64,000 nucleotides of DNA from a bacterium (GTDB taxonomy: Bacteria; Bacteroidota; Bacteroidia; UKL13-3). The notes under the pieces are model-generated. The model was given only the letters and a program-made list of their open reading frames with translations. It searched no databases and was not told where the DNA came from. The translations under genes were made by a program, and so were the position numbers. The first letter of the stretch is position 1. Every line of letters begins with the position of its first letter. The DNA is taken from positions 9,786-73,785 of the forward strand of contig JAWXAZ010000010.1 of NCBI GenBank assembly GCA_034439755.1. Direction: 5' to 3'. Positions 1-38,868 of the stretch are shown here, piece after piece.

Positions 1-872
1 ACTAGACGCTCAATAATTTCCATCACGTCAAAAGGCTTGGTAAAATTAGCCACAGCCTCATACACATCAGCCATCGATTTCTTGGGCGCAATTGGTTCAG
101 CCCTATTAAAACCAGCCTTTTCGTAATCGCCAATTTTATCCAATATCCGTTTGATCCGATCCAAACATGCAGCATCATTTTCAAACTTATAATCGGTTAC
201 CCCGCTTATTTCGCAATGCGTGGAAGCACCACCTAAGGTTTCATTGTCTACATCTTCGCCAATGGCTGCCTTAACAAGGTAGGAGCCCGCTAAGAAGATT
301 GAGCCCGTTTTATCTACAATCATGGCCTCATCGCTCATAATTGGCAGGTAAGCACCACCCGCCACGCAAGAGCCCATAACGGCAGCTATTTGGGTAATTC
401 CCATGCTGCTCATAATGGCGTTGTTTCTAAAAATTCTACCAAAATGTTCCTTATCTGGGAAGATTTCATCTTGCATAGGCAAGTAAACGCCTGCACTGTC
501 TACCAAATAAATGATGGGCAATTTATTTTCCATGGCAATTTCTTGGGCACGTAAATTCTTTTTGCCGGTAATAGGAAACCAAGCACCCGCTTTTACGGTG
601 GCATCATTGGCCACTACTATGCACTGCCTGCCGCTCACATAACCCATTACCACCACCACACCCGCGCTTGGACAGCCACCATGTTCTGCATACATTTCGT
701 AGCCTGCAATGGCACCAATTTCTATTTGCGGTTTGTCTTTATCCAATAGGTATTCCACACGTTCGCGCGCCAACATTTTACCTTTATCCTTTTGTTTCGC
801 GGCTGCTTTTGCGCCTCCACCTTGGGCTATTTTTTCTAATCGTTGGTTAAGTTCGGTAACTAGCTTATTCAT
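1..872 (-). CDS. Acyl-CoA carboxylase beta (carboxyltransferase) subunit, methylcrotonyl-CoA carboxylase-like; 3' end lies outside the window
   Basis: Reverse-strand translation from ATG at 872: MNKLVTELNQRLEKIAQGGG...ARERVEYLLD..., with ANDATVKAGAW, YLVDSAGVYLPMQDEIFPDKEHFGRIF and GSCVAGGAYLP motifs typical of carboxyltransferases. Not in the ORF track because it is truncated. Confidence 0.9.
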   Translation of the reverse strand, partial: MNKLVTELNQRLEKIAQGGGAKAAAKQKDKGKMLARERVEYLLDKDKPQIEIGAIAGYEMYAEHGGCPSAGVVVVMGYVSGRQCIVVANDATVKAGAWFPITGKKNLRAQEIAMENKLPIIYLVDSAGVYLPMQDEIFPDKEHFGRIFRNNAIMSSMGITQIAAVMGSCVAGGAYLPIMSDEAMIVDKTGSIFLAGSYLVKAAIGEDVDNETLGGASTHCEISGVTDYKFENDAACLDRIKRILDKIGDYEKAGFNRAEPIAPKKSMADVYEAVANFTKPFDVMEIIERL

Positions 873-878
873 AATTTT

Positions 879-920
879 TGCTGTTGGCTATTCACTATTG
901 GCTGTTTGCCATTAGCAAGT
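879..920. repeat. Degenerate heptamer tandem repeat (about 6 units)
   Basis: tgctgtt ggctatt cactatt ggctgtt tgccatt agcaagt, immediately upstream of the carboxylase start codon. Confidence 0.5.
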
Positions 921-1022
921 TGTAGTCAACTAATTTTATTATTGCAATGATACAGAATCGAACAAGAATAGCAAATAGGGTTTATCGATAGAACGTCAAT
1001 TGTTCGTATTTTTATAGTAAAC

Positions 1023-2069
1023 CTAAAACACAAAGTTAAAAGATGCTTGATATAAAATTCCACGTAGGTTTCGGTTCATTTCATTTAGAGGTAAGAAATA
1101 ACTTACTTTATTGTCTATTAAGATGTTTTTGGTCTTAAGAAATTCAATCCCAATACTCAGGTTGACATTGGGAACAAATACACTGTTTTTGTTGTTGTTT
1201 TGGTTGGTTATAAATCCACCAACCTGATAACCGGTATAAAGGTTTAAGTACTTCCGTTTGCCTCTGCCAAAGTTTCGAGGGTAGAAATCTTGACCAAAGT
1301 TTATTAAGAACAGCTCATTAATAAGGGATGTGTCACTTAAGTTATTTTCTAAGACTTTGTAAACCCCAAGGTTAAAATAGCTTTTACCTCGTGTAAACAT
1401 GTACTTTACACTTAGTCCTTGGTATAGAGATGAACTAATACCTGTAGTTGGGTTTTCAATTTTTAACAGGCCATATTCAATACCGGGCATATTTACAAAG
1501 GACACGCGCGAATTGTTTGGTGTACTTAATTCGTCATTTATGGTAAATTTTACGGAACACAAACTGTCGTATACATTTTTATTATATTGGTTAACCTCTA
1601 CCTCTAAATTGGCTATGGTTGAAAGGTTATGGGAGATTTTATTGTATATGCTTTCTGTGTTTCTATTCGAATTTGGCAGCAGGGTGTCTTTAAGTTGATT
1701 GGTATAAATTTTATTCTCGAATTTGAGTTTTTCAATTTTGTTTTCTCGCTCCTTAACTTTTTGTTGAATGTTCTCTGTGTTAAACGTGTTTTGGGTAATA
1801 TATCCCAATTTATTGGCTAATGAATCAACACTCGATAAAAGGTTTAGGTCTATAAAAAACTCGCAATAATAGCGGGTAGTGCTATAATCTGTGTTCGATA
1901 TTAGGGCTTTATTTCGTTTAATAAAGAGGTTCAATTTGGAACTACTTTCATCAAGTTTGCTCACATAAACCTGAATGGTTTTGTTACTTGGAGCTTCTTG
2001 TGCCTTTGCAGTAAAAATGATACCCACAAGAAAAATTAGTGCCAAAGATTTAGTTATAGGTGAGCTCAT
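1023..2069 (-). CDS. Exported hypothetical protein: DUF4349-like/coiled-coil N-terminal half plus probable outer-membrane beta-barrel C-terminal half
   Basis: 348-aa ORF with signal peptide (AKA-Q), heptad-rich middle, alternating beta-strand pattern and C-terminal ...YQASFNFVF. Confidence 0.6.
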   Translation of the reverse strand: MSSPITKSLALIFLVGIIFTAKAQEAPSNKTIQVYVSKLDESSSKLNLFIKRNKALISNTDYSTTRYYCEFFIDLNLLSSVDSLANKLGYITQNTFNTENIQQKVKERENKIEKLKFENKIYTNQLKDTLLPNSNRNTESIYNKISHNLSTIANLEVEVNQYNKNVYDSLCSVKFTINDELSTPNNSRVSFVNMPGIEYGLLKIENPTTGISSSLYQGLSVKYMFTRGKSYFNLGVYKVLENNLSDTSLINELFLINFGQDFYPRNFGRGKRKYLNLYTGYQVGGFITNQNNNKNSVFVPNVNLSIGIEFLKTKNILIDNKVSYFLPLNEMNRNLRGILYQASFNFVF

Positions 2070-2421
2070 ATAAATTTTTTATTAGGTTCAAAGATAAAGG
2101 ATTTTATAGTATTTATCTTTTTATTGGCTAATTGGATTTATTTGGTCTACTAATTTATCCTAATTATAATTTTTGACCTGTTATGTGCCCAAAAGCATGC
2201 CTTGGTTAACTGCCAGATAACAAAAAACCACCTAAAGGTCTCCAATAAATACAATCTTCCCTTTAAGGATTCTTGTTTATGCATTTGCATATTTATTCAT
2301 AGCGAATGAGGTATCTATGCCCTTTTGAGTGTTTACTTATTTATTCTATCCTTGCTTAAAAGCAATATTGCTTTACTAAAGTCACAGATAATCAATTGTT
2401 TTTGAATTATTGTAAGATATT

Positions 2422-2453
2422 TTTGCTTGGTTACCTTCAAAACCATACTTTTG
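2422..2453 (+). promoter_or_regulatory. Bacteroidota housekeeping promoter (-33 TTTG / -7 TAnnTTTG) for the SRP RNA
   Basis: TTTG at 2422-2425, 20-nt spacer, TACTTTTG at 2446-2453, 5 nt before the RNA 5' end. Confidence 0.75.
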
Positions 2454-2458
2454 CGCTT

Positions 2459-2554
2459 GGGTGAGCCCTGTACGATCAGCTCCCTCTAATCCCCCCAGGA
2501 CAGGAATGAAGCAAGGGCGTGAGGTTGTAGCGATGCGATGCAGTAAGCTTGCCC
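2459..2554 (+). ncRNA. ffs: Signal recognition particle RNA (small bacterial 4.5S type)
   Basis: About 96-nt GC-rich hairpin: 5' GGGTGAGC pairs with 3' GCTTGCCC; apical domain IV motif CAGG-ACA-GGAA-TGA-AGCA; followed by a T run and preceded by a consensus promoter. Confidence 0.9.
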
Positions 2555-2706
2555 TTTTTTTATTCTCTACCGCAATCTTGGAAAAGGTGGATTGCCCAAA
2601 TCAGCACAATTCTTCCCAATCCCCAATTTTATTAAACCTAAAAAATGCACAGCCTACAAGCCCAAACAGCTTGCATAAAGCTTAGCTCTTCTGCTTCAGT
2701 TTTTCA

Positions 2707-3020
2707 TTTTCTTTTTGCCTTACATAACCTATTTTCATTTAGCCTTGCATAACCTGTTTTCTTTTTGCCTTACATAACCTATTTTCATTTAGCCTTACAT
2801 AACCTGTTTTCTTTTAGCCTTGCATAACCTGTTTTCTTTTAGCCTTACATAACCTGTTTTCATTTAGCCTTACATAACCTATTTTCATTTAGCCTTGCAT
2901 AACCTGTTTTCTTTTTGCCTTACATAACCTGTTTTCTTTTTGCCTTACATAACCTATTTTCATTTAGCCTTACATAACCTGTTTTCATTTAGCCTTGCAT
3001 AACCTATTTTCATTTAGCCT
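2707..3020. repeat. 25-bp tandem repeat array, 12 full copies plus partial flanks, consensus GCCTTRCATAACCTRTTTTCWTTTW
   Basis: Units start exactly every 25 bp from 2717 to 2992 (partial at 3017); variation only at unit positions 6, 15, 21 and 25. Confidence 0.97.
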
Positions 3021-3058
3021 GTTGCTTTAAATCTAAAAAAAAGCCAAAATTTTATTAC

Positions 3059-3106
3059 TATAAGTTGCTAAATCATTTAATTTTTTACTAGATTTAGCGA
3101 GTTATA
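3059..3106. repeat. 48-bp inverted-repeat site A (15-bp arm, 18-bp spacer, 15-bp arm)
   Basis: TATAAGTTGCTAAAT-N18-ATTTAGCGAGTTATA; arms 13/15 complementary. Confidence 0.85.
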
Positions 3107-3110
3107 AATA

Positions 3111-3158
3111 TGTAAATTGCTAAATATGGTATAATTTGTATATTTGGAGCGAGTTATA
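3111..3158. repeat. 48-bp inverted-repeat site B, overlapping the probable promoter of the ATPase gene
   Basis: TGTAAATTGCTAAAT-N18-TTGGAGCGAGTTATA, 52 bp after site A; overlaps the -7 element TATATTTG (3139-3146). Confidence 0.75.
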
Positions 3159-3166
3159 AATTAGCT

Positions 3167-4603
3167 ATGGGAACAAATATTATTGGTCGGCATAAAGAAT
3201 TGACGCAGTTTACAGCCCTAATGAAATCAAAGCAGTCTGAATTTGTGGCGGTTTATGGAAGAAGGCGAGTAGGAAAAACTTTTTTGATTAGAGAGACATT
3301 TTCTAATACATTTAGTTTTCAATTAACAGGTTTGGCCAATGCTAATTTGGCCCAGCAGTTAGTTAACTTTAGTGCTGCAATAAATAACTATTATCCAACC
3401 AATAAAATATGGCCAATTCCTAAAACTTGGTTTGAGGCCTTTCAACAATTAATAGGGTTATTAGAGAAGACGAAGCAATCAAAAAAAATAATATTTTTAG
3501 ACGAATTGCCTTGGTTAGATACTCCAAGGTCTAATTTTATTCAAGCCCTAGAGCATTTTTGGAATAGCTGGGCTTCTGCCCGCAAAGATATTTTATTAAT
3601 TGTTTGTGGTTCTGCGGCATCATGGATGCTCAATGTGCTCATTAATAACAAAGGTGGTTTACACAACAGAATTACCTGCAAAATGAAAATTGTTCCATTT
3701 ACATTAGCAGAATCAGAGTTGTACTTTCAATCGAAAGGAATAAAATGGAACCGATACCAAATTCTAGAAAATTATATGGTTATGGGCGGCATTCCCTTCT
3801 ACATGAATGCAGTTAAAAAAGGAAAGAGCGCAACGCAGGCAATAAATGAATTGTGTTTTGATGAGGATGGCTTATTAACAAGTGAGTTTGAAAACTTATA
3901 TGCTTCACTTTTTAGGCAATCTGCAAATCATATTTTGGTGGTTAAGGCATTAAGCAAAAAAGCGAAAGGTCTTAGCAGGGAAGAAATTATTAGCTATGCT
4001 AAAATACCTAATGGTGGAGGTACCAGCAAGGTGTTAATGGAGCTTGAATTAAGTGGTTTTATTAGAACCTATGTTCCATTTGGAAAACAAACCAAGGACA
4101 CTTTATACCAATTGATTGATTTTTATACCCTTTTTTATTTTAAATTCTTACATGATAGAAAATATAATGATTCTCGCTTATGGTTGAATTTACAAGATAC
4201 TCCCTTACATCGCAATTGGGCAGGCTATGCTTTTGAAATGGTTGCCATGCAACATGTATCTCAACTTAAATTGGCATTGGGTATTAGTGGTGTTCAAAGC
4301 AATATTGCTTCTTGGCGATACCACGATAGTGATGCAGGCGCGCAAATTGATTTATTAATCGATAGAAGAGATCAAGTAATTACCATTTGTGAAATGAAGT
4401 TTTCAATTAATGAATTTGTTATTGATAAATCGTATGCTGCAAAACTTAGAAATAAAATTGGCTCCTTTAAAAGAGTAAGTAAAACTAAAAGTGCCATTCA
4501 ACTTTGTATGCTTACTACCTATGGTGTTTCCGCTAATAATTATTCTTTAGATTTGGTTCAAAATGATTTATCAATGGATTGTCTTTTTTCTATAACTCGC
4601 TAA
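3167..4603 (+). CDS. P-loop ATPase (archaeal ATPase_2 / STAND-like) with winged HTH and C-terminal PD-(D/E)XK-like domain
   Basis: Walker A GRRRVGKT, Walker B IIFLDELPW, wHTH-like LSREEIISYAKIPNGGGTSKVLMELELSGFI, and nuclease-like QIDLLIDRRDQVITICEMKF. Confidence 0.9.
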   Translation: MGTNIIGRHKELTQFTALMKSKQSEFVAVYGRRRVGKTFLIRETFSNTFSFQLTGLANANLAQQLVNFSAAINNYYPTNKIWPIPKTWFEAFQQLIGLLEKTKQSKKIIFLDELPWLDTPRSNFIQALEHFWNSWASARKDILLIVCGSAASWMLNVLINNKGGLHNRITCKMKIVPFTLAESELYFQSKGIKWNRYQILENYMVMGGIPFYMNAVKKGKSATQAINELCFDEDGLLTSEFENLYASLFRQSANHILVVKALSKKAKGLSREEIISYAKIPNGGGTSKVLMELELSGFIRTYVPFGKQTKDTLYQLIDFYTLFYFKFLHDRKYNDSRLWLNLQDTPLHRNWAGYAFEMVAMQHVSQLKLALGISGVQSNIASWRYHDSDAGAQIDLLIDRRDQVITICEMKFSINEFVIDKSYAAKLRNKIGSFKRVSKTKSAIQLCMLTTYGVSANNYSLDLVQNDLSMDCLFSITR

Positions 4604-4638
4604 ATGTGGCATTTTAAACATAGATATAGCGAGTTATA
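4591..4638. repeat. 48-bp inverted-repeat site C, overlapping the ATPase stop codon (may also act as a terminator)
   Basis: TATAACTCGCTAAAT-N18-ATATAGCGAGTTATA; the left arm is the exact reverse complement of 3092-3106. Confidence 0.85.
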
Positions 4639-4648
4639 AAAATCTATG

Positions 4649-4978
4649 TTATAACTTTTTATTGTTTTTGTGCCTATCCACATCTCTTTTCGTTTTCTTT
4701 TCCATATTGCGTTCAAAGGCTTCCGTTAAGTTAATACCAGTTTGATTAGCCAAACAAATCAATACCCACATTACATCGGCCATTTCATCTGCTAAATCAA
4801 CCGACTCATCAGATTTTTTAAATGATTGTTCTCCGTATTTTCTGGCCATAATGCGGGCAACTTCACCTACCTCTTCCATTAAAATGGCGGTATTGGTAAG
4901 TTCATTAAAATAGCGCACTCCTGTGGTGTTTATCCATTCGTCTACGCGTTTTTGTGCGTCTTCAATTGTGATGCTCAT
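4649..4978 (-). CDS. MazG-like nucleotide pyrophosphohydrolase (YpjD family)
   Basis: LMEEVGEVAR and LADEMADV acidic metal-binding motifs; 109 aa. Confidence 0.9.
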   Translation of the reverse strand: MSITIEDAQKRVDEWINTTGVRYFNELTNTAILMEEVGEVARIMARKYGEQSFKKSDESVDLADEMADVMWVLICLANQTGINLTEAFERNMEKKTKRDVDRHKNNKKL

Positions 4979-5019
4979 AATTAATTTTTTTTCGATTTTA
5001 CACTACTTTAATTTGCAAA

Positions 5020-5472
5020 TTATGATTTATTTTTTGTGTCGATCCAAATTGTAACCGGACCATCATTAATTAAACTAACTTTCATATCTGCCCCAAATTC
5101 GCCACTGACAATTGTTTTCTCGAGGTCGTTGCTTAATTGCAATTTGAGCTTTTCGTAAAGGGGAATGGCAATGTTTGGAGGAGCTGCTTTAATATACGAT
5201 GGCCTATTGCCTTTTTTGGTATCGGCATGTAAAGTAAACTGACTCACCACCAAAATTTCGCCATGAATGTCTTTTAGGCTTTTGTTCATTACTGCATTTT
5301 CATCTTCAAAGATGCGTAGGTTTACAATTTTGTTCGAAAGCCAAACAAGGTCTTCATCACCGTCTGCATGCTCTATTCCCACCAATATCAGTAAGCCTCG
5401 TTGGATTGAACCGATGCTTATACCATTTACTTTTACCGATGCTTCTGTTACTCGTTGTATAAGTGCTCTCAT
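5020..5472 (-). CDS. dtd: D-aminoacyl-tRNA deacylase
   Basis: MRALIQRV, SQFTL and NDGPVT signature motifs. Confidence 0.97.
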   Translation of the reverse strand: MRALIQRVTEASVKVNGISIGSIQRGLLILVGIEHADGDEDLVWLSNKIVNLRIFEDENAVMNKSLKDIHGEILVVSQFTLHADTKKGNRPSYIKAAPPNIAIPLYEKLKLQLSNDLEKTIVSGEFGADMKVSLINDGPVTIWIDTKNKS

Positions 5473-6389
5473 TCGTAAATGTCTTCATTGCTCATCATAC
5501 TGAGGTAGCTTGTGAAACGCTCCTCGCTAATTTGTCCGGTTCTTACCGCCTCTTGTATAGCACAATCTGGTTCGTTTATGTGCTTACAATTATTGAACCT
5601 ACACTGACCAATGATGGGCTGCATTTCTTTAAAATAATGACTCACCTCGGCATCTAAAAAATCCACTAATCCAAATTCTCTTATACCTGGTGTGTCTACA
5701 ATATAACCACCAAAATTGAGGGGATGCATTTCGGCAAATGTGGTTGTATGTTGGCCTTTTTGTGAGTAATTTGAAATGGCTGTTGTCTTCAAATGTAAGT
5801 TAGGTTCTATGTGGTTTAACAAGGTCGATTTTCCAACCCCTGAATGTCCGCTAAGCAAGGATATTTTGTTACTTAATAAGCTCTTTAATTCGTCCATACC
5901 CTCGCCCGTTACAGTTGACGTTTTGAGGCATTGGTAGCCAATACGTTCGTATAATTCGATGGTGTAATCTAATACTACTTCAAAACCATTTATCATCAAA
6001 TCGCATTTGTTAAAAACCAATATTGCTGGTATGTGGTATGCTTCAGATGTAATTAAAAATCTGTCTATAAATCCCAGCGATGTCTTAGGAAAAACTAAGG
6101 TGATAATTAGCAAACTTTGATCGAGGTTACTGGCAATAATATGTGTTTGTTTGCTTAAATTATTAGCCTTTCTTATAATGTGATTTTTGCGTTCTTCAAT
6201 TTTAAAAATTATCCCATTATTCGAATCGGGTTCCATTTCAAATTCAACCACATCGCCAACAGTTATTGGATTGGTGTGCTTAATGCCACTGAGCCTAAAT
6301 TTACCTTTTAACCTGCAGCTGTGCAATACGTTTTTTTCGGTTCTAACCAAATACCAACTGCCTGTTGATTTAATAACAATGCCTTTCAT
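5469..6389 (-). CDS. rsgA: Ribosome small subunit-dependent GTPase A
   Basis: Circularly permuted GTPase (NKCD, GHSGVGKST, DTPG) and CxFxxCxHxxEPxC zinc site. Confidence 0.97.
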   Translation of the reverse strand: MKGIVIKSTGSWYLVRTEKNVLHSCRLKGKFRLSGIKHTNPITVGDVVEFEMEPDSNNGIIFKIEERKNHIIRKANNLSKQTHIIASNLDQSLLIITLVFPKTSLGFIDRFLITSEAYHIPAILVFNKCDLMINGFEVVLDYTIELYERIGYQCLKTSTVTGEGMDELKSLLSNKISLLSGHSGVGKSTLLNHIEPNLHLKTTAISNYSQKGQHTTTFAEMHPLNFGGYIVDTPGIREFGLVDFLDAEVSHYFKEMQPIIGQCRFNNCKHINEPDCAIQEAVRTGQISEERFTSYLSMMSNEDIYE

Positions 6390-6757
6390 GCGCTAAACCA
6401 TTTTAACCCTAAAAATGCTGCGGCAAATCCAAGTAAATTGCTCAGAAAAAAATAAGTCAAAGCCTTTATGCTTTCTTGATTTTTAACCAAATGAACTAAT
6501 TCCATTGAATAGGTAGAAAAGGTGGTAAATCCGCCTAAAATTCCTATAATAAAAAATGGACGAATGCTTTCTTGAAATTGTGGAGTGCCGCTGTATGACG
6601 CAAATATTGCTCCTAAAATAAAGCAGCCTAGAATGTTTACCATTAAGGTTCCAAACGGAAACTCATAAGGAATCAACTGTGCAATTCCACTTATGGTAAG
6701 ATAGCGAAGCACCGCGCCCAAAGCGCCACCAAGGGCTATCCAGATGATTTGATTCAT
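6386..6757 (-). CDS. crcB: Fluoride efflux channel Fluc/CrcB
   Basis: GGALGAVLRY, PFGTLMVN and GGFTTFST motifs; four TM segments. Confidence 0.96.
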   Translation of the reverse strand: MNQIIWIALGGALGAVLRYLTISGIAQLIPYEFPFGTLMVNILGCFILGAIFASYSGTPQFQESIRPFFIIGILGGFTTFSTYSMELVHLVKNQESIKALTYFFLSNLLGFAAAFLGLKWFSA

Positions 6758-6809
6758 GCCAGCAAGTTACTGTTTTAGGCTCATTTATCCCAAATTTTTC
6801 ATTTTGTTT

Positions 6810-6823
6810 TCGGTCTGAACCAA
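6810..6823 (-). repeat. Dispersed motif TTGGTTCARACCGA, exact copy (intergenic)
   Basis: tcggtctgaaccaa on the + strand. Confidence 0.8.
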
Positions 6824-7028
6824 TGGATGGGTTGAAAGTTTTTTACGCTCGATAATTTTGTTGAACCTTCGGCTATAAGAATTTTCATGATCCATCTTTT
6901 GATTTTCCCTTTGGTTTTGTGGCAATGTAGGCACTCAAACAAAAGAGAATTGATCCTATATTGTATAAAGGCCAATGCATTTTAAACCTATCAATAACTC
7001 TCTATCAATTGAATTGTAATCAAATAAT

Positions 7029-7057
7029 TTAAACAAATGATTAATATATTTGATTAA
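7029..7057 (+). promoter_or_regulatory. Probable TetR operator and -7 promoter element
   Basis: Imperfect palindrome TTAAACAAATGATTAA (7029-7044) next to TATATTTG (7045-7052), upstream of the tetR-family gene. Confidence 0.5.
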
Positions 7058-7099
7058 ATTATTTTTTTATGTTTTACTTCCCAGCGGAAATGTATTTTC

Positions 7100-7720
7100 A
7101 TGGCAAAAAAAATTGTACATAGCAAGGAAGATGTTCTTAATACCGAAGCCAAAATTAAACAAGCAGCCCAGGCAGTATTTATGCGCAAAGGCTATGCGGC
7201 TACGCGTACTAGAGTCATTGCCGAGGAAAGCGGAATTAACCTCGCCTTAATTAATTATTATTTTAGAAGCAAAGAGAATTTGTTTAACTTGGTTATGCTC
7301 GATTGTATGAAGGGTTTTATAGGAGGACTCAAGCAAATTCTTAACAGAGAGGATCTGAGTTTGGAAGAAAAATTAGGTGAAATAGTTGCGCATTACCTTA
7401 GCATGTTTAAAAGTCAGCCAGATTTGCCCTTGTTTATCTTGCACGAAATTAGGCATAATCCTAATGGAATAGTTAATACCTTAGGCATGAAACAAACCCT
7501 CACAAAATCGCATTTTTATCAACAGTTAAAGGCCGAAGGTCCACCAAAAATTGACCCCATGCATTTTTTGATGAATATCATTGCCCTCACCGTTTTTCCA
7601 TTTATAGCCTCGCCTTTGTTTAAAATTGTGGGCGATTTGGATGATGCCAATTATATGAAAATGATGAACGATAGAAAAAAATTAATTCCCATTTGGATGA
7701 AACAAATGCTTCAGAAATAG
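7100..7720 (+). CDS. TetR/AcrR family transcriptional regulator
   Basis: N-terminal HTH: KGYAATRTRVIAEESGINLALINYYFRSKENLF. Confidence 0.95.
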   Translation: MAKKIVHSKEDVLNTEAKIKQAAQAVFMRKGYAATRTRVIAEESGINLALINYYFRSKENLFNLVMLDCMKGFIGGLKQILNREDLSLEEKLGEIVAHYLSMFKSQPDLPLFILHEIRHNPNGIVNTLGMKQTLTKSHFYQQLKAEGPPKIDPMHFLMNIIALTVFPFIASPLFKIVGDLDDANYMKMMNDRKKLIPIWMKQMLQK

Positions 7721-7734
7721 TAAAGGTAATTAAC

Positions 7735-8494
7735 ATGAGATACTTAGAAAAATTAGCTTTGAAATTAAAGCTGGCCATGATTGCCATAGTTGTCTCTGCG
7801 GGCATTACTAAGGCACAAGATATAAGGATTACTTTACTTGAGTGCCAGAATAATGCACTAGAGAATTATCCGCAGGTGAAGCAACGTGCGTTTATATGGC
7901 AATTAAAGGATTACTTCATTTCAAAAGCCAACAAAGGTTACTTGCTCCAATTATAATTGATTGGTTAGGCTACTTATCAATCGGAGGTAACGCAATCTCC
8001 TATGCCCATTCCGGGTGTAAAAGTGGCAAGCAAAAATCAATATAAGTTTTATGGTGAGCTGAACCAAACGCTTTATGATGGTGGAAATATTCGCAATCAA
8101 AAGGGGATTCAAACTGCTGTTTCTGCCATAGATGAAAATAAATTGAATGTAGATTTGTTTGCCATGAAAGATAGGGTAATTCAGTTGTTTTTTGGCCTCT
8201 TAATCCTAGATGAACAACTTAAGCAAAATTCTTTGTTGCAAAGTGATATTACTGCAGCTTTAAACGAAACATCTGCTTCGGTTAAATAGGAAGCTAGCCT
8301 TAAAAGTAATGAAGAGTTGTTTTAAGCAGAATTTTTAAAAGCCAAACAACGTAGCATCAATCTTAGCGGAACCCGCAAGGCTTACCTTGATATGCTTAGT
8401 CTTTTTACGAACCAAAAATTGAGCGAAGATACCCAACTTGAAAGACCTGCCTTCCCAGGTTTAAGCAACAAAATAAAGCGGCCAGAATTGAACT
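7735..8494 (+). pseudogene. TolC family outer-membrane efflux protein, N-terminal part, disrupted
   Basis: One continuous frame reads as TolC (signal peptide, ALENYPQVKQ, ATYQSEVT, QTLYDGG, KRPEL) but has in-frame stops at 7954, 7966, 8287 and 8323 and ends abruptly near 8495. Confidence 0.85.
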
Positions 8495-8875
8495 TATCTG
8501 CCTGCGGTTTTGGGATTTAGATTATTGGTCTCAATCTTCTGCGAAACGCAGCAACAAGCCATGTTTATCATGTTTTTCTTTATGATGATTTTTATGTTGG
8601 TGGGAGGCCTATTTACTTCATTTGAGAGCATGCCTCCTTGGGCGCAAATAGTATCTAGGTTCAACCCCGTTTCTTATCTTATTAAGGGAATGAGGATGGT
8701 GGTTTTAAAGAGCAGTACCTTGCCATATGTATTGCCGCAATTGGGTATCATTGCTATTTTTGGGGTGGTGCTAAATTCGCTTGCCGTTTGGAATTACCGC
8801 AAAACATCTTATTTTTTTTGGCATAATTTCATGCGCTCATGCAACTTAACCCATGTTGCAGCTATTATAGTGTAG
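8495..8875 (+). pseudogene. ABC-2 type transporter permease, C-terminal fragment
   Basis: Only the C-terminal part is present (ETQQQAMF, GGLFTSFESMPPWAQ, NPVSYLI, WNYRKTS); joined out of frame to the TolC remnant. Confidence 0.85.
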
Positions 8876-8903
8876 ATAGACCGTAAACAAGGATTTCCTT
8901 TAT

Positions 8904-9806
8904 TTAATGCTTGCTCCTTGGGTGAAATTGTATCACAACGTCTCTTAAATATTCTCTGTCTAAGTGGGTGTAAATTTCGGTAGTGGTGATGCTTTCGTGT
9001 CCAAGCATTTGTTGTACTGCCCTCAAATCTGCGCCTGCTTCCACCAAACTGGTGGCAAATGAATGTCGCAGCGTATGCGGACTAATATCTTTTTGTATGC
9101 CTGCCAAATGGGCTAAGTCTTTCAGAATATAAAAGATCATTTGTCGGCTTAATTTGCCCGCCCTTCGGTTCAGAAATAAGATATCGTTGTTGCCTGGTTT
9201 GGGTATTTGATGCACGCGCACCTCTTTCAAATATAAGTCGATAATATTTAGAGCAGAAAGGCTAATGGGTACCAATCTTTCCTTGTTCCCTTTACCTGTT
9301 ACTTTAATATATTGTTCTTCAAACGAAATATTGGAGATACGCAAATCGGTAGCTTCACTTACCCTTAGTCCGCAACTAAACATGGTTTCTACAATGGCTT
9401 TGTTGCGAACGCCCTCAGGTTTATTGAGGTCTATTTGCGCCACCATTTTATCTATTTCGTAAACTTCTAATACTTGTGGCAATTTCCTGCTTAAGCGCGG
9501 CGCTTCTAATAGCTCTGCCGGACTTTGTTTTATTTCATCCTCCATGAGCAGGTATTTAAAAAAGGCTTTTAGTCCAGATATGATGCGTGCTTGGCTATTT
9601 GCCTCCAAACCTAATTGGTTGAGATAGGCAATAAAGTCTCTGAGGTTTTTAAGTTTAACTTGTGTTGGGGCAAGCTGCAGCGATTCTATCTCCTGAAATT
9701 GAATGTACTTTTCTACATCGTGCAGGTAAGCAGAAATCGAGTTTTTGGAAAGCGATTTTTCTAATTGCAGATATAATTTGAACCCATTAAGATAAGCTTG
9801 CCACAT
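8904..9806 (-). CDS. xerD: Site-specific tyrosine recombinase XerD
   Basis: GLRVSE, GKGNKER, HTLRHSFAT, LGHESITTTEIY catalytic motifs and C-terminal FHPR. Confidence 0.93.
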   Translation of the reverse strand: MWQAYLNGFKLYLQLEKSLSKNSISAYLHDVEKYIQFQEIESLQLAPTQVKLKNLRDFIAYLNQLGLEANSQARIISGLKAFFKYLLMEDEIKQSPAELLEAPRLSRKLPQVLEVYEIDKMVAQIDLNKPEGVRNKAIVETMFSCGLRVSEATDLRISNISFEEQYIKVTGKGNKERLVPISLSALNIIDLYLKEVRVHQIPKPGNNDILFLNRRAGKLSRQMIFYILKDLAHLAGIQKDISPHTLRHSFATSLVEAGADLRAVQQMLGHESITTTEIYTHLDREYLRDVVIQFHPRSKH

Positions 9807-10067
9807 ATATTACTAATTGGATTATTATTTTAAATCATAACTTTCAAATAGATTACCTAGGAAATAGCAATTTAGGCTAGTTATACCAATTGTGCTAATT
9901 AAATAACCCAAAGTTATTTGATAATTTTACTAGGATAAATGCCGATATAACAAAATAATAGTACAAGGTGATATTTGTCGAATTTGGGCTATATATTTTA
10001 TGTTTTTGGTAGTAGCCTAGCTACTTTTTTAACTATGGCAGATATACTTTAGGTAAAGTACAAACAT

Positions 10068-37238: not shown

Positions 37239-38612
37239 ATGAAAAAACTTATTTACATCACTGCAATTATTGCGCTCTTTTTTATTGACAGGGCAAGCGC
37301 TCAAATTAGTCCAGAAGTGGACCAAGAATTACAAAGCACCTTGGATAGTGTTTGTAGCCTGTATAAAATTAAGGGGGTATCGGCAGCCGTTCTTCTGCCA
37401 GGAATTGGATTATGGAAGGGCGTTTATGGAGATTCTCATCAAGGGGTGAAAATGAGAAGTGATATGCTTTTAGGCATGGGAAGTAATACCAAAACACATA
37501 TTGCCGCTGCATTATTAATCATGCAACAAAATGGCCAATTGAGCTTAGATGATAGCATTGGAAAATGGATTATTGGCTACCCTAATATTCCTGCCAATAT
37601 TACCATTAGGCAATGTCTGAACCATAGCAGTGGATTACACGATTATTTACAAAATGATGCTATTAATGACAGTATTTTTGATAGACCAAATAGAATCTGG
37701 ACTAAATTGGAAATATTGAAAATGGCCAGTACGCCCAATTTTGCCCCCGGAAAGGGCTGGAGTTACTCAAATACAAATTATATTGTTGCAGGAATAATCA
37801 TTGAAATGGTTGCGAAAAAGGCGCCATTTGAAGTTATTCAGGAGCTAATTTTAAACCCGCACCAACTTAACAATACTTTTTATTACGGCGCACAAGGTGC
37901 TAAAGTAATTGCGCATCCCTGGAGTATGAATATGACAGGAACTGAATTAACAGACATGACCACCACCCCCTTGATGAACAATTTATTTAGTTTGGCAAAT
38001 ACAGCAGGTTGGCTCATCACTACAGCCGAAGACAATGTAAATTTTTGGTATAAACTATGCACGCAGCAAGTATTATCAAATCAATCTTGGCTCCAAATGA
38101 CGAGCATGAAGTCTATTGGTAGTAATACGTTCTATGGATTAGGAATTTTTAGATACAATAAGAAATTAAATGGCCGTACTTTTTATTCGCACGGAGGCAC
38201 CTTTTTTGGATACATTAACGAAAATGTTTTCGATACTACCTCAAAGGTTGCCATATCTGCCTTAACCAATCAAGATAGTTTAAATAATAATGGATTATTG
38301 GCCACAGTTATAAATGCTTTGCATAAATTAAGTTTAAAGCTGCCAACAAATGGTTTAAATACACTGTCTTCGGTTCAGTTCAGCGTTTTTCCAAATCCTG
38401 CAAATACAGAACTAAACCTACAATTGGATGAACCAAATTTTAATGGGGTAGTAGAACTTATCGACTATAATGGAAAGGTGATTTCCCAAGAGGAATTAAC
38501 CAAATCTAATATGCAGGTAAATACTTCTTACCTGCCAAATGGATTGTACTTATTGCGTGTGAGTACTTTTGGTAAAGTTTCCACTAAGCGAGTTTTGATA
38601 ATGCATAATTAA
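37239..38612 (+). CDS. Serine hydrolase (beta-lactamase/D-Ala-D-Ala peptidase family) with T9SS C-terminal domain
   Basis: SxxK (SNTK), YSN and HGG motifs; C-terminal VFPNPAN...NGLYLLRV; start MKKLIY at 37239. Confidence 0.9.
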   Translation: MKKLIYITAIIALFFIDRASAQISPEVDQELQSTLDSVCSLYKIKGVSAAVLLPGIGLWKGVYGDSHQGVKMRSDMLLGMGSNTKTHIAAALLIMQQNGQLSLDDSIGKWIIGYPNIPANITIRQCLNHSSGLHDYLQNDAINDSIFDRPNRIWTKLEILKMASTPNFAPGKGWSYSNTNYIVAGIIIEMVAKKAPFEVIQELILNPHQLNNTFYYGAQGAKVIAHPWSMNMTGTELTDMTTTPLMNNLFSLANTAGWLITTAEDNVNFWYKLCTQQVLSNQSWLQMTSMKSIGSNTFYGLGIFRYNKKLNGRTFYSHGGTFFGYINENVFDTTSKVAISALTNQDSLNNNGLLATVINALHKLSLKLPTNGLNTLSSVQFSVFPNPANTELNLQLDEPNFNGVVELIDYNGKVISQEELTKSNMQVNTSYLPNGLYLLRVSTFGKVSTKRVLIMHN

Positions 38613-38615
38613 TGT

Positions 38616-38661
38616 CAATAAATGAGCGTTGTTTGTTAGTAAAAACAACGCTCATTTATTG
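38616..38661. terminator. Perfect 19-bp inverted repeat, probable terminator
   Basis: CAATAAATGAGCGTTGTTT-N8-AAACAACGCTCATTTATTG, 3 nt after the stop codon. Confidence 0.8.
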
Positions 38662-38868
38662 TATAAAAGAATAATTTATACCGAAACCACAAAATATATA
38701 GTCCAATTTCGAAAAATATCTCCTTGTACTATTATTTTGTTATATTGGCATTAACCCTAGTAAAATTATCAAATGGCTTTGGGCTATTTAATAATTACAA
38801 TTGGTATTATTGGGATTAGAAAGATGCTTTAATTGAAAACTCAAAGCAAGATTCCTTGGATATCAAGT

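Follow-up and report, generated by a model that had tools for sequence, protein, structure and literature searches.

The window analysed here is a stretch of 64,000 nucleotides from a bacterium of the Bacteroidota (GTDB lineage Bacteroidia; UKL13-3; assembly GCA_034439755.1, contig JAWXAZ010000010.1, positions 9,786 to 73,785 of the forward strand). Near its start, a single gene predicted to encode an ATPase-nuclease is bracketed by three palindromic sites, two of them (A and B) in tandem before the gene and the third (C) over its stop codon. Coordinates of the gene, its domains, the sites, the promoter motifs and the neighbouring features are collected in Table 1 and were counted from the first letter of the window.

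Table 1. Features of the ATPase-nuclease locus and its surroundings.
Feature	Position	Strand	Description
ATPase-nuclease gene	3167–4603	+	478-amino-acid (aa) PDC-S27-type protein, predicted; open reading frame (ORF), Pfam, PADLOC, structure model
AAA+ ATPase domain	residues ~1–235	+	Walker A GRRRVGKT at 3257–3280
Lid and winged helix	residues ~236–330	+	helices 253–264, 271–278 and 285–295; wing 299–316 (AlphaFold model)
PD-(D/E)xK domain	residues ~338–478	+	D395 at 4349–4351, E409 at 4391–4393, K411 at 4397–4399
Site A	3059–3106	n/a	distal upstream palindrome, 15-18-15; read as distal operator
Site B	3111–3158	n/a	promoter-proximal degenerate copy, 15-18-15; read as proximal operator over core promoter
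Site C	4591–4638	n/a	palindrome, 15-18-15, over last four codons and stop; read as auxiliary operator
Upstream promoter element TTGCTA	3117–3122	+	inside left arm of site B; sigma-70-type scan
-7 box TATATTTG	3139–3146	+	TAnnTTTG match, 28 nt before ATG; straddles spacer and right arm of site B
Signal recognition particle (SRP) RNA	2452–2558		only Rfam family above gathering score in 1–10000
25-bp x 12.6 tandem array	2707–3020	n/a	between SRP RNA and site A; membership in the system uncertain
MazG-like gene	4649–4978	-	convergent with ATPase-nuclease gene
Tyrosine recombinase gene	8904–9806	-	300 aa, Phage_integrase and SAM-like N domain; Xer-like by size

The predicted protein matched Pfam ATPase_2 (PF01637) at 53.2 bits (cut-off 33.2) and the PADLOC model PDLC04984 (PDC-S27) over its full length (E 2.8e-201; residues 4–474 on positions 3–473 of the 474-position profile). 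In an alignment of 38 relatives, the Walker A and B residues (G31, R32, R33, R34, G36, K37 and T38; D112 and E113) were invariant, as were D395, E409 and K411 near the C-terminus. The AlphaFold model (pLDDT 89.9) consisted of an AAA+ module, a lid, a winged helix and a C-terminal domain of alpha-beta-beta-beta-alpha-beta order that carried D395, E409 and K411. Foldseek searches with the model returned the archaeal ATPases 2qen and 2fna as best matches, followed by STAND and Orc1/Cdc6 proteins, all with probability 1.00; alignments to Orc/Cdc6 entries (including 2qby and 2v1u) had TM-scores of ~0.3 at 9–16% identity. With a full-length profile match, an ATPase_2 domain with Walker A and B motifs and a C-terminal PD-(D/E)xK domain all found, the gene product belongs, as far as profile and model can tell, to the PDC-S27 candidate defence family and is predicted to combine an AAA+ ATPase, a winged helix and a PD-(D/E)xK nuclease domain. 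The Pfam match, the model, its fold matches and the three invariant residues agree with an earlier note on this DNA, made from its letters alone, which had named the product an ATPase-nuclease with a winged helix-turn-helix.

Relatives of the protein are abundant: a word-index search returned at least 8000, all significant, and among the matches listed the nearest was 87% identical and most were 56–62% identical. A Pfam search of the C-terminal 167 residues, an NCBIfam search of the protein and a PDB-chain sequence search with the profile of alignment A1 gave no family or match, and a paralogue in one related locus (L029) had weak matches to DUF234 and DUF4143 (E 0.002–0.008). The G+C content of the gene (0.33–0.34, vs 0.37 for the window) was uninformative. 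In the passages of PMC12988326 that concern it, PDC-S27 is presented as a fusion of an ATPase with a PD-(D/E)xK domain and as very common, with counts of 4562 in bacteria and 3503 in archaea, and experimental validation is stated to be pending for most PDCs; the corresponding passages of PMC13356809 give 2865 in 6530 rumen genomes.

Direct reading and pattern search both confirmed the three 15-18-15 sites reported in the earlier note and the 52-bp distance from A to B. Compared with the arm TATAACTCGCTAAAT, site A had two mismatches in its left arm and none in its right, site B had three in each arm, and site C had none and one. At up to three mismatches this arm was matched eight times in the 64 kb, and six of the matches were the arms of A, B and C, arranged as three inverted pairs; the other two (39556 and 49513) were at chance level (3.53 matches expected; eight reached in 3 of 100 shuffles). 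Arms were conserved between sites and spacers were not, as had been claimed: A and C were identical at 27/30 arm positions and 7/18 spacer positions, and A and B at 25/30 and 7/18. That the three sites match one another as palindromes held for only part of the set, A and C being strong palindromes in the 15-18-15 register (13/15 and 14/15 self-complementary) and B reaching only 9/15. At the -7 box the right arm of B is shifted by 2 bases, which is explained by the position of that box on the boundary between spacer and right arm. Palindromes of at least 13/15 at the exact 15-18-15 spacing were found three times in the window (A, C and one with unrelated arms at 38615–38662), and 200 first-order Markov simulations of the window gave a mean of 0.17 and a maximum of 1. 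The spacer of A contains a T6 run.

Site C supplies the end of the gene, as the earlier note had described. The ORF finishes tct ata act cgc TAA (4589–4603) inside the left arm of C, and the aligned relatives have a consensus that stops some three residues short of this (...LFx); the site thus supplies the SITR tail and the stop codon of the window protein. Site C occupies the 45-bp gap before the convergent MazG-like gene. RNA from this region can form a hairpin (-22.5 kcal/mol for 4570–4690, z -2.66) with an A+U-rich stem of 12 bp and a loop of 18–24 nt, followed by AAAAAUC. The G+C-rich stem, short loop and adjacent U-run of an intrinsic terminator were thus absent at C, and a scan of 2560–5000 returned no terminator-like site; by these observations, C is not a standard terminator.

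Homologous loci were collected by scanning species-representative genomes with alignment A1, which gave 80 loci at 44–58% aa identity, mostly from Bacteroidota. Gene starts and stops were set by script, and loci without a start, a stop or enough flanking sequence were dropped count by count (denominators of 77, 71, 70 and so on). A strong palindrome was defined as at least 13/15 complementarity between 15-nt arms separated by spacers of 15–21 nt. The earlier note had proposed a search for such sites around homologous ATPases, and strong palindromes were found within 200 bp upstream of the gene in 50/77 loci, at 0.97 per locus; elsewhere in the same loci they occurred at 0.019 per 200 bp (50 sites in 516,087 bp), an upstream enrichment of about 50-fold. 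Centres of neighbouring palindromes were 26 bp apart in 30/77 cases and 52 bp apart in 7/77, so half-sites alternate in orientation about every 2.5 helical turns and like half-sites recur every five. Tandem Repeats Finder reported site periods of 51–55 bp in 13 loci, at up to 5.9 copies, and a 64-bp period in L021. Runs of at least five A or T were present in the spacers of 60/116 strong sites.

Long upstream arrays of palindromes, far exceeding two operators, were seen in L038 (1651–1918, 52 bp x 5.2), L044 (4641–4953, 53 bp x 5.9) and L021 (585–989, 64 bp x 5.8). The arrangement also reaches beyond the phylum: homologues at 33–43% identity, carried by plasmids of Butyrivibrio (two), Emticicia and Malaciobacter and by Wolbachia phage WO, likewise had palindromes or repeats just upstream. 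In the last of these (L083, MN180249.1) the homologue, at 39% identity, lies between phage head-tail connector genes and is preceded by two tandem copies of a ~37-nt repeat with CCGCGG-type palindromes (~1390–1500 of the locus). Nothing clear was found upstream of archaeal homologues (~24% identity), and none of the 11 loci of the distant set had a same-arm site after the stop codon.

The upstream sites coincide with the promoter. In Bacteroidota the -7 box has the consensus TAnnTTTG and the -33 element the consensus TTTG. Besides the -7 box, a sigma-70-type scan of the window picked out TTGCTA-16-TATATT (3117–3144) within site B, and ATTG stands at its first element where the -33 TTTG would fall. 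Matches to TAnnTTTG within 70 nt of the ATG were present in 57/78 loci, against 5.1 expected from shuffles. Among 56 related loci with a box, it lay inside a palindrome in 21; the palindrome ended 4–15 nt before the box in 19, 23–35 nt before it in seven and ~85 nt before it in three, and six loci had no palindrome at the threshold. The box was thus inside a palindrome, or no more than 15 nt after one, in 40/56.

Arm sequences varied widely between loci, yet recurred within one locus. When the best arm of each of 50 loci was searched for outside the gene flanks (352,972 bp), only seven matches were obtained, of which three extend the L021 array and three are in L024. Paired changes on both arms were recorded between close relatives, rows out of register being excluded because they gave spurious compensated counts; the comparison used L019/L023 (a G-C to C-G exchange), L009/L011 (three pairs, in the distal site), and L058/L060 and L012/L026 (one each). 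In non-syntenic pairs at 71–81% nucleotide identity, the shared block ran from about -50 to -150, sites included, through the stop codon, so the upstream sites are inherited with the gene. The ATPase gene is the only gene common to these otherwise unrelated loci, and the sites are conserved and co-vary with it. Second gene copies among the 80 loci were limited, by tblastn, to one partial copy (L029) and one distant relative (L066).

An explanation in which the sites work through DNA structure (a cruciform, or a bend that tunes the promoter) or through a host palindrome-recognising protein, and not through the encoded protein, is considered very unlikely. In its favour, arm sequences vary almost without constraint although complementarity, length and spacing are retained, the A or T runs in the spacers suggest bending, and the presumed recognition helix hardly varies in its core. 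However, within a locus the same arm sequence is kept and not just its complementarity, which indicates a sequence-specific reader differing by locus; moreover, the loci share no other gene, and cruciform extrusion with an 18-nt loop is unfavourable.

Since the sites lie on the promoter, are phased, are specific to each locus and travel with the gene, they are read as an autoregulatory operator set, and since no candidate binder other than the encoded protein differs between loci, we infer that the gene product reads its own sites. DNA binding by this protein is plausible given its predicted resemblance to Orc1/Cdc6-type AAA+ and winged-helix folds. On the strength of these comparative data, A, B and C are probably operators bound by the encoded ATPase-nuclease, with A and B serving autorepression and C acting as an auxiliary operator, by loop or roadblock. 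Autoregulation through the protein's own DNA-binding domain, which the earlier note had suggested from the upstream copies, fits the family evidence best (upstream sites, overlap with or abutment on the promoter, locus-specific arms).

In this arrangement, A and B, 52 bp or five helical turns apart, would present the same face of the DNA, and protein bound over the core promoter at B, as dimers or as a larger AAA+ assembly, would keep its own potentially toxic gene low. Site C would have arisen later, as a copy of this operator over the stop codon in which the arms and the 18-bp spacing were kept and the spacer drifted; this pattern of retention suggests that C is read for its sequence and not for hairpin potential alone. 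Its most likely role would be that of an auxiliary operator, which might close a ~1.5-kb repression loop with A and B or might hold a protein roadblock between the ATPase-nuclease gene and the convergent mazG-dtd-rsgA genes. Looping, which the earlier note had offered for the copy at the 3' end, is a live reading of site C.

Downstream copies were assessed across the related loci. An identical 14-mer was common to the upstream and downstream 170 bp of the same locus in 13/70 loci (window included), against 21/4830 cross-locus pairs. The same arm, with up to two mismatches, occurred again within ~210 bp after the stop codon in 14/50 loci, and same-arm downstream copies were recognised by eye in 19 rows, window included. 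No strong palindrome of any kind followed the stop codon in 50/71 loci. On a tree of 75 proteins, the downstream copy was present in 17/41 rows of the window's clade vs 2/34 of the other clade (Fisher p = 4e-4), and the 19 labelled rows required at least 17 gains or losses. In about half of the loci with a copy the next downstream gene was convergent, and in the others it was co-directional and 125–456 bp away, so the copy is not simply the operator of the next gene. Seven diverged upstream/downstream pairs, picked for matching arms (at least 22/30), had kept their spacing; identity was 0.91 for arms, 0.60 for spacers and 0.46 for flanking sequence. Other copies were nearly identical and apparently recent (L051, 99% over 103 bp; L030, 92%; L075, 91%). 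The upstream copies of L022 and L055 also carry the end of the ORF (its final 14 or 43 bp). In L058 the ATPase stop codon is followed (6480–6570) by a relic of a second cassette, made up of operator, promoter and five initial codons nearly identical to the start of the L046 gene from another genome, beyond which the DNA is unrelated.

These copies could also mean that site C is a passive by-product, left over from a tandem duplication of operator and gene or from a neighbouring cassette and at most a hairpin terminator, so that only A and B are operators. This account is regarded as unlikely. It draws on the near-identical recent copies, on the relics in L022, L055 and L058, on the narrow convergent gap and foldable RNA at C, and on the many changes required by the tree, which imply a trait easily gained or lost. 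It does not explain why the older pairs have kept their arms and spacing while spacers and flanks diverged, given that a hairpin needs complementarity and not identity to the upstream arm; nor does it sit well with a stem, loop and missing U-run unlike those of a terminator, or with the concentration of the trait in one clade (41%).

In L077, sites, gene and downstream site together are flanked by a 270-bp direct repeat (4623–4891 and 6630–6899, 94.8% identity) that comprises 62 bp and the 5' end of a host gene for an MBL-fold hydrolase; this host gene is intact to one side of the unit and reduced to a 69-codon fragment on the opposite side, and an Eco57I-like restriction-modification gene comes next. 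A flanking repeat of 170 bp (87%) was found in L003. The flanking repeats and relics show that the unit has often been duplicated and deleted locally, and no mechanism is implied.

Such flanks are also what would be expected if the palindromes marked the ends of a one-gene mobile cassette, or were its recombination sites, with movement driven by the cassette's own ATPase-nuclease or by a recombinase of the host, for instance Xer, and with operator duty secondary. We consider this quite unlikely. Like sites bracket the gene in about a quarter of the loci, 3'-end relics stand upstream in L022 and L055 and a second-cassette relic in L058, and the gene occurs in unrelated contexts, on plasmids and in phage, with homology ending at the outermost upstream site; the protein has a predicted nuclease domain, and a gene for an Xer-like recombinase lies 4.3 kb away. 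Against these points, 50/71 loci have no strong palindrome after the stop codon, shared blocks of non-syntenic relatives end at the stop codon, and the 7/18 identity of the A and C spacers falls short of the matching crossover regions that conservative recombinases need. No extra copies of arm or gene were found in the 64 kb, and the 80 loci added only the partial copy and the distant relative named above. A consistent short target duplication was not found around the units, the flanking repeats vary in length and position, as local duplications would also produce, the 15-18-15 layout differs from the 11-6-11 of dif, and the region of the window is otherwise housekeeping.

A further variant, in which the palindromes are in addition the ends of a new type of one-gene selfish cassette on which the Orc-like ATPase-nuclease assembles, cutting or duplicating the unit without integrase or transposase, is judged distinctly unlikely; it would account for the bracket layout, for the 3'-end and second-cassette relics and for the long duplications of host DNA in L077 and L003. 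The interpretation in the earlier note is supported in part, for autoregulation and possibly looping but not for an integron-like cassette.

Several observations weigh against the reading of A, B and C as operators of the encoded protein. At the threshold used, 27/77 loci had no strong upstream palindrome, and the box was more than 15 nt from any palindrome in 16/56. The compensated two-arm changes are expected equally under selection for a hairpin. The labels of the 19 downstream sites were assigned by eye, and the choice of the seven pairs inflates the contrast between arms and spacers. Among 19 close pairs of proteins, the fastest-diverging 11-residue windows were 272–282 (3980–4012), which comprise helix 2 and the turn of the winged helix, tied with 468–478 (4568–4600), the C-terminal end that abuts the downstream site (0.48 for both vs a mean of 0.22); the fast divergence of 272–282 is weak evidence and may merely reflect a surface loop. 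Although the arms vary greatly, the presumed recognition helix hardly changes in its core (..L.ELE..GFI), and in STAND-type ATPases the winged helix can have a purely structural role. In L024 a neighbouring YhcG/DUF1016 nuclease gene (3614–4717) is likewise preceded by the operator, so the action of the binder need not be confined to its own gene; a further, partial copy stands at 8053. Finally, looping, roadblock and relic are not separated by the results for site C.

Two further observations concern loci with unusual flanks. The site regions of L024 are at 3431–3590, 4812–4990, 6475–6540 and 8045–8090, a second and different palindrome is present at 3431–3481 and 6475–6525, and AAA_14-DUF4143 and Fic genes adjoin. 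In L026 and L052 a terminator-like hairpin with no relation to the operator arms is present on both sides of the gene (upstream at about -260 to -93; downstream at +16 to +92), a flanking direct repeat of another kind.

The proposed autoregulatory arrangement was compared with known systems. The C-boxes of restriction-modification controller (C) proteins likewise consist of two adjacent palindromic operators over the regulator's own promoter, in a potentially toxic nuclease system, and their sequences differ between systems, avoiding cross-talk of paralogues. Their binder is a small, separate helix-turn-helix protein, whereas here it would be the ATPase-nuclease itself; the present sites are also much larger (48 bp, with half-sites 33 bp apart), are phased at 52 bp and include a third copy after the stop codon. 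The auxiliary operators of lac, gal and deo resemble site C in that a main operator at the promoter is accompanied by a conserved copy hundreds of bp away, in or beyond the gene. Here, however, looping is only proposed, the loop of ~1.5 kb would enclose the regulator's whole gene, and the distal copy is present in only part of the family.

Archaeal Orc1/Cdc6 proteins and their origin recognition boxes offer a third parallel, an AAA+ and winged-helix protein encoded beside inverted repeats with A+T-rich DNA between them. They differ in that the present protein has an added PD-(D/E)xK domain and that its sites overlap a promoter. An origin or iteron-like element, with an Orc1/Cdc6-like initiator beside its phased sites and the 25-bp array (2707–3020) as iterons, is accordingly held to be extremely improbable: the fold resemblance, the phased repeats with A+T-rich spacers and the 12.6-copy array adjoining the sites would suit it, but the likeness of array to arm is at chance and other loci have no such array, the protein has a predicted nuclease domain and thousands of relatives encoded by single chromosomal genes, and spacers of 18 bp are too short for an unwinding element.

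Integron cassettes share with this locus an imperfect palindrome 3' of a single gene and GTTATAA-like words at both ends, the echo remarked on in the earlier note. The echo did not hold up. The core consensus of attC is RYYYAAC ... GTTRRRY, which the words here misfit (GTTATAA has T at the second R); attC sites measure 57–141 bp and the present sites 48 bp, two of the three sites here precede a gene that is served by its own promoter, and neither an array nor, among the ORFs scanned, IntI is present. The sites moreover co-vary with the gene and not with an integrase. That the window has no integron integrase was borne out among the ORFs scanned, the only recombinase being the Xer-like protein of 300 aa. 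Sites of the Xer/dif type (dif modules, IMEX) were rejected as well, being 28 bp with an 11-6-11 layout where all three sites here are 15-18-15. A transposon or miniature inverted-repeat transposable element (MITE) with terminal inverted repeats was set aside because, in the 64 kb of this genome that were covered, the arms occur only at the gene and no second gene copy is present, homology between non-syntenic relatives ends at the stop codon, and the flanking repeats are long and variable.

The sites thus appear to fit autoregulatory palindromic operators, in an unusual bracket form, on a very common candidate defence gene. No description of these palindromes was found in the literature searched, supplements being outside the search. 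Within that scope, the text located on PDC-S27, DUF234, COG1672, PF01637, DUF4143 and PADLOC made no mention of repeats around these genes; the relevant passages of PMC12988326 and PMC13356809 mention neither flanking repeats nor regulation of PDC-S27, and a term search of the preprint 10.1101/2024.01.29.577857 gave no matches for S27, inverted repeat, palindrom or autoregulat.

PDC-S27 is among the commonest candidate defence genes. If the operator reading is correct, the sites would supply biochemical and structural work on an Orc-like ATPase-nuclease with a defined DNA ligand, and the related loci would provide dozens of natural protein-operator pairs of differing specificity from which a recognition code could be read. 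The arrangement would also offer a testable model for how a toxic defence nuclease is held low and then released. A gene enclosed by its own operators is unusual and raises the possibilities of looping, insulation or self-mobilisation.

Among the surrounding features, a permissive Rfam search of 2560–4760 gave nothing better than E = 1.6. The unit of the 25-bp array holds ATTTAGCC..CATAAC and alternates between two states at each of four positions (6, 10, 16 and 25). The array was rejected as a set of half-site iterons, the best match of a unit to the arm being 9/15 (10/15 for one variant), which 35% and ~7%, respectively, of 5000 shuffled units reach; Tandem Repeats Finder reported no array like it in the other loci. 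Downstream of the ATPase-nuclease gene, Pfam identified convergent MazG-like, Dtd and RsgA genes, and a scan of 52 further ORFs of the window returned housekeeping genes. No transposase was found by Pfam among the window ORFs, and tblastn found no second copy of the ATPase-nuclease gene in the window. The Xer-like recombinase was the only recombinase among the 56 ORFs scanned, and no link between its gene, 4.3 kb from site C, and the sites was found. The unrelated palindrome at 38615–38662 (14/15, 15-18-15) directly follows ORF 37239–38612, which encodes a beta-lactamase-fold protein with a secretion tail, and is probably the terminator of that ORF.

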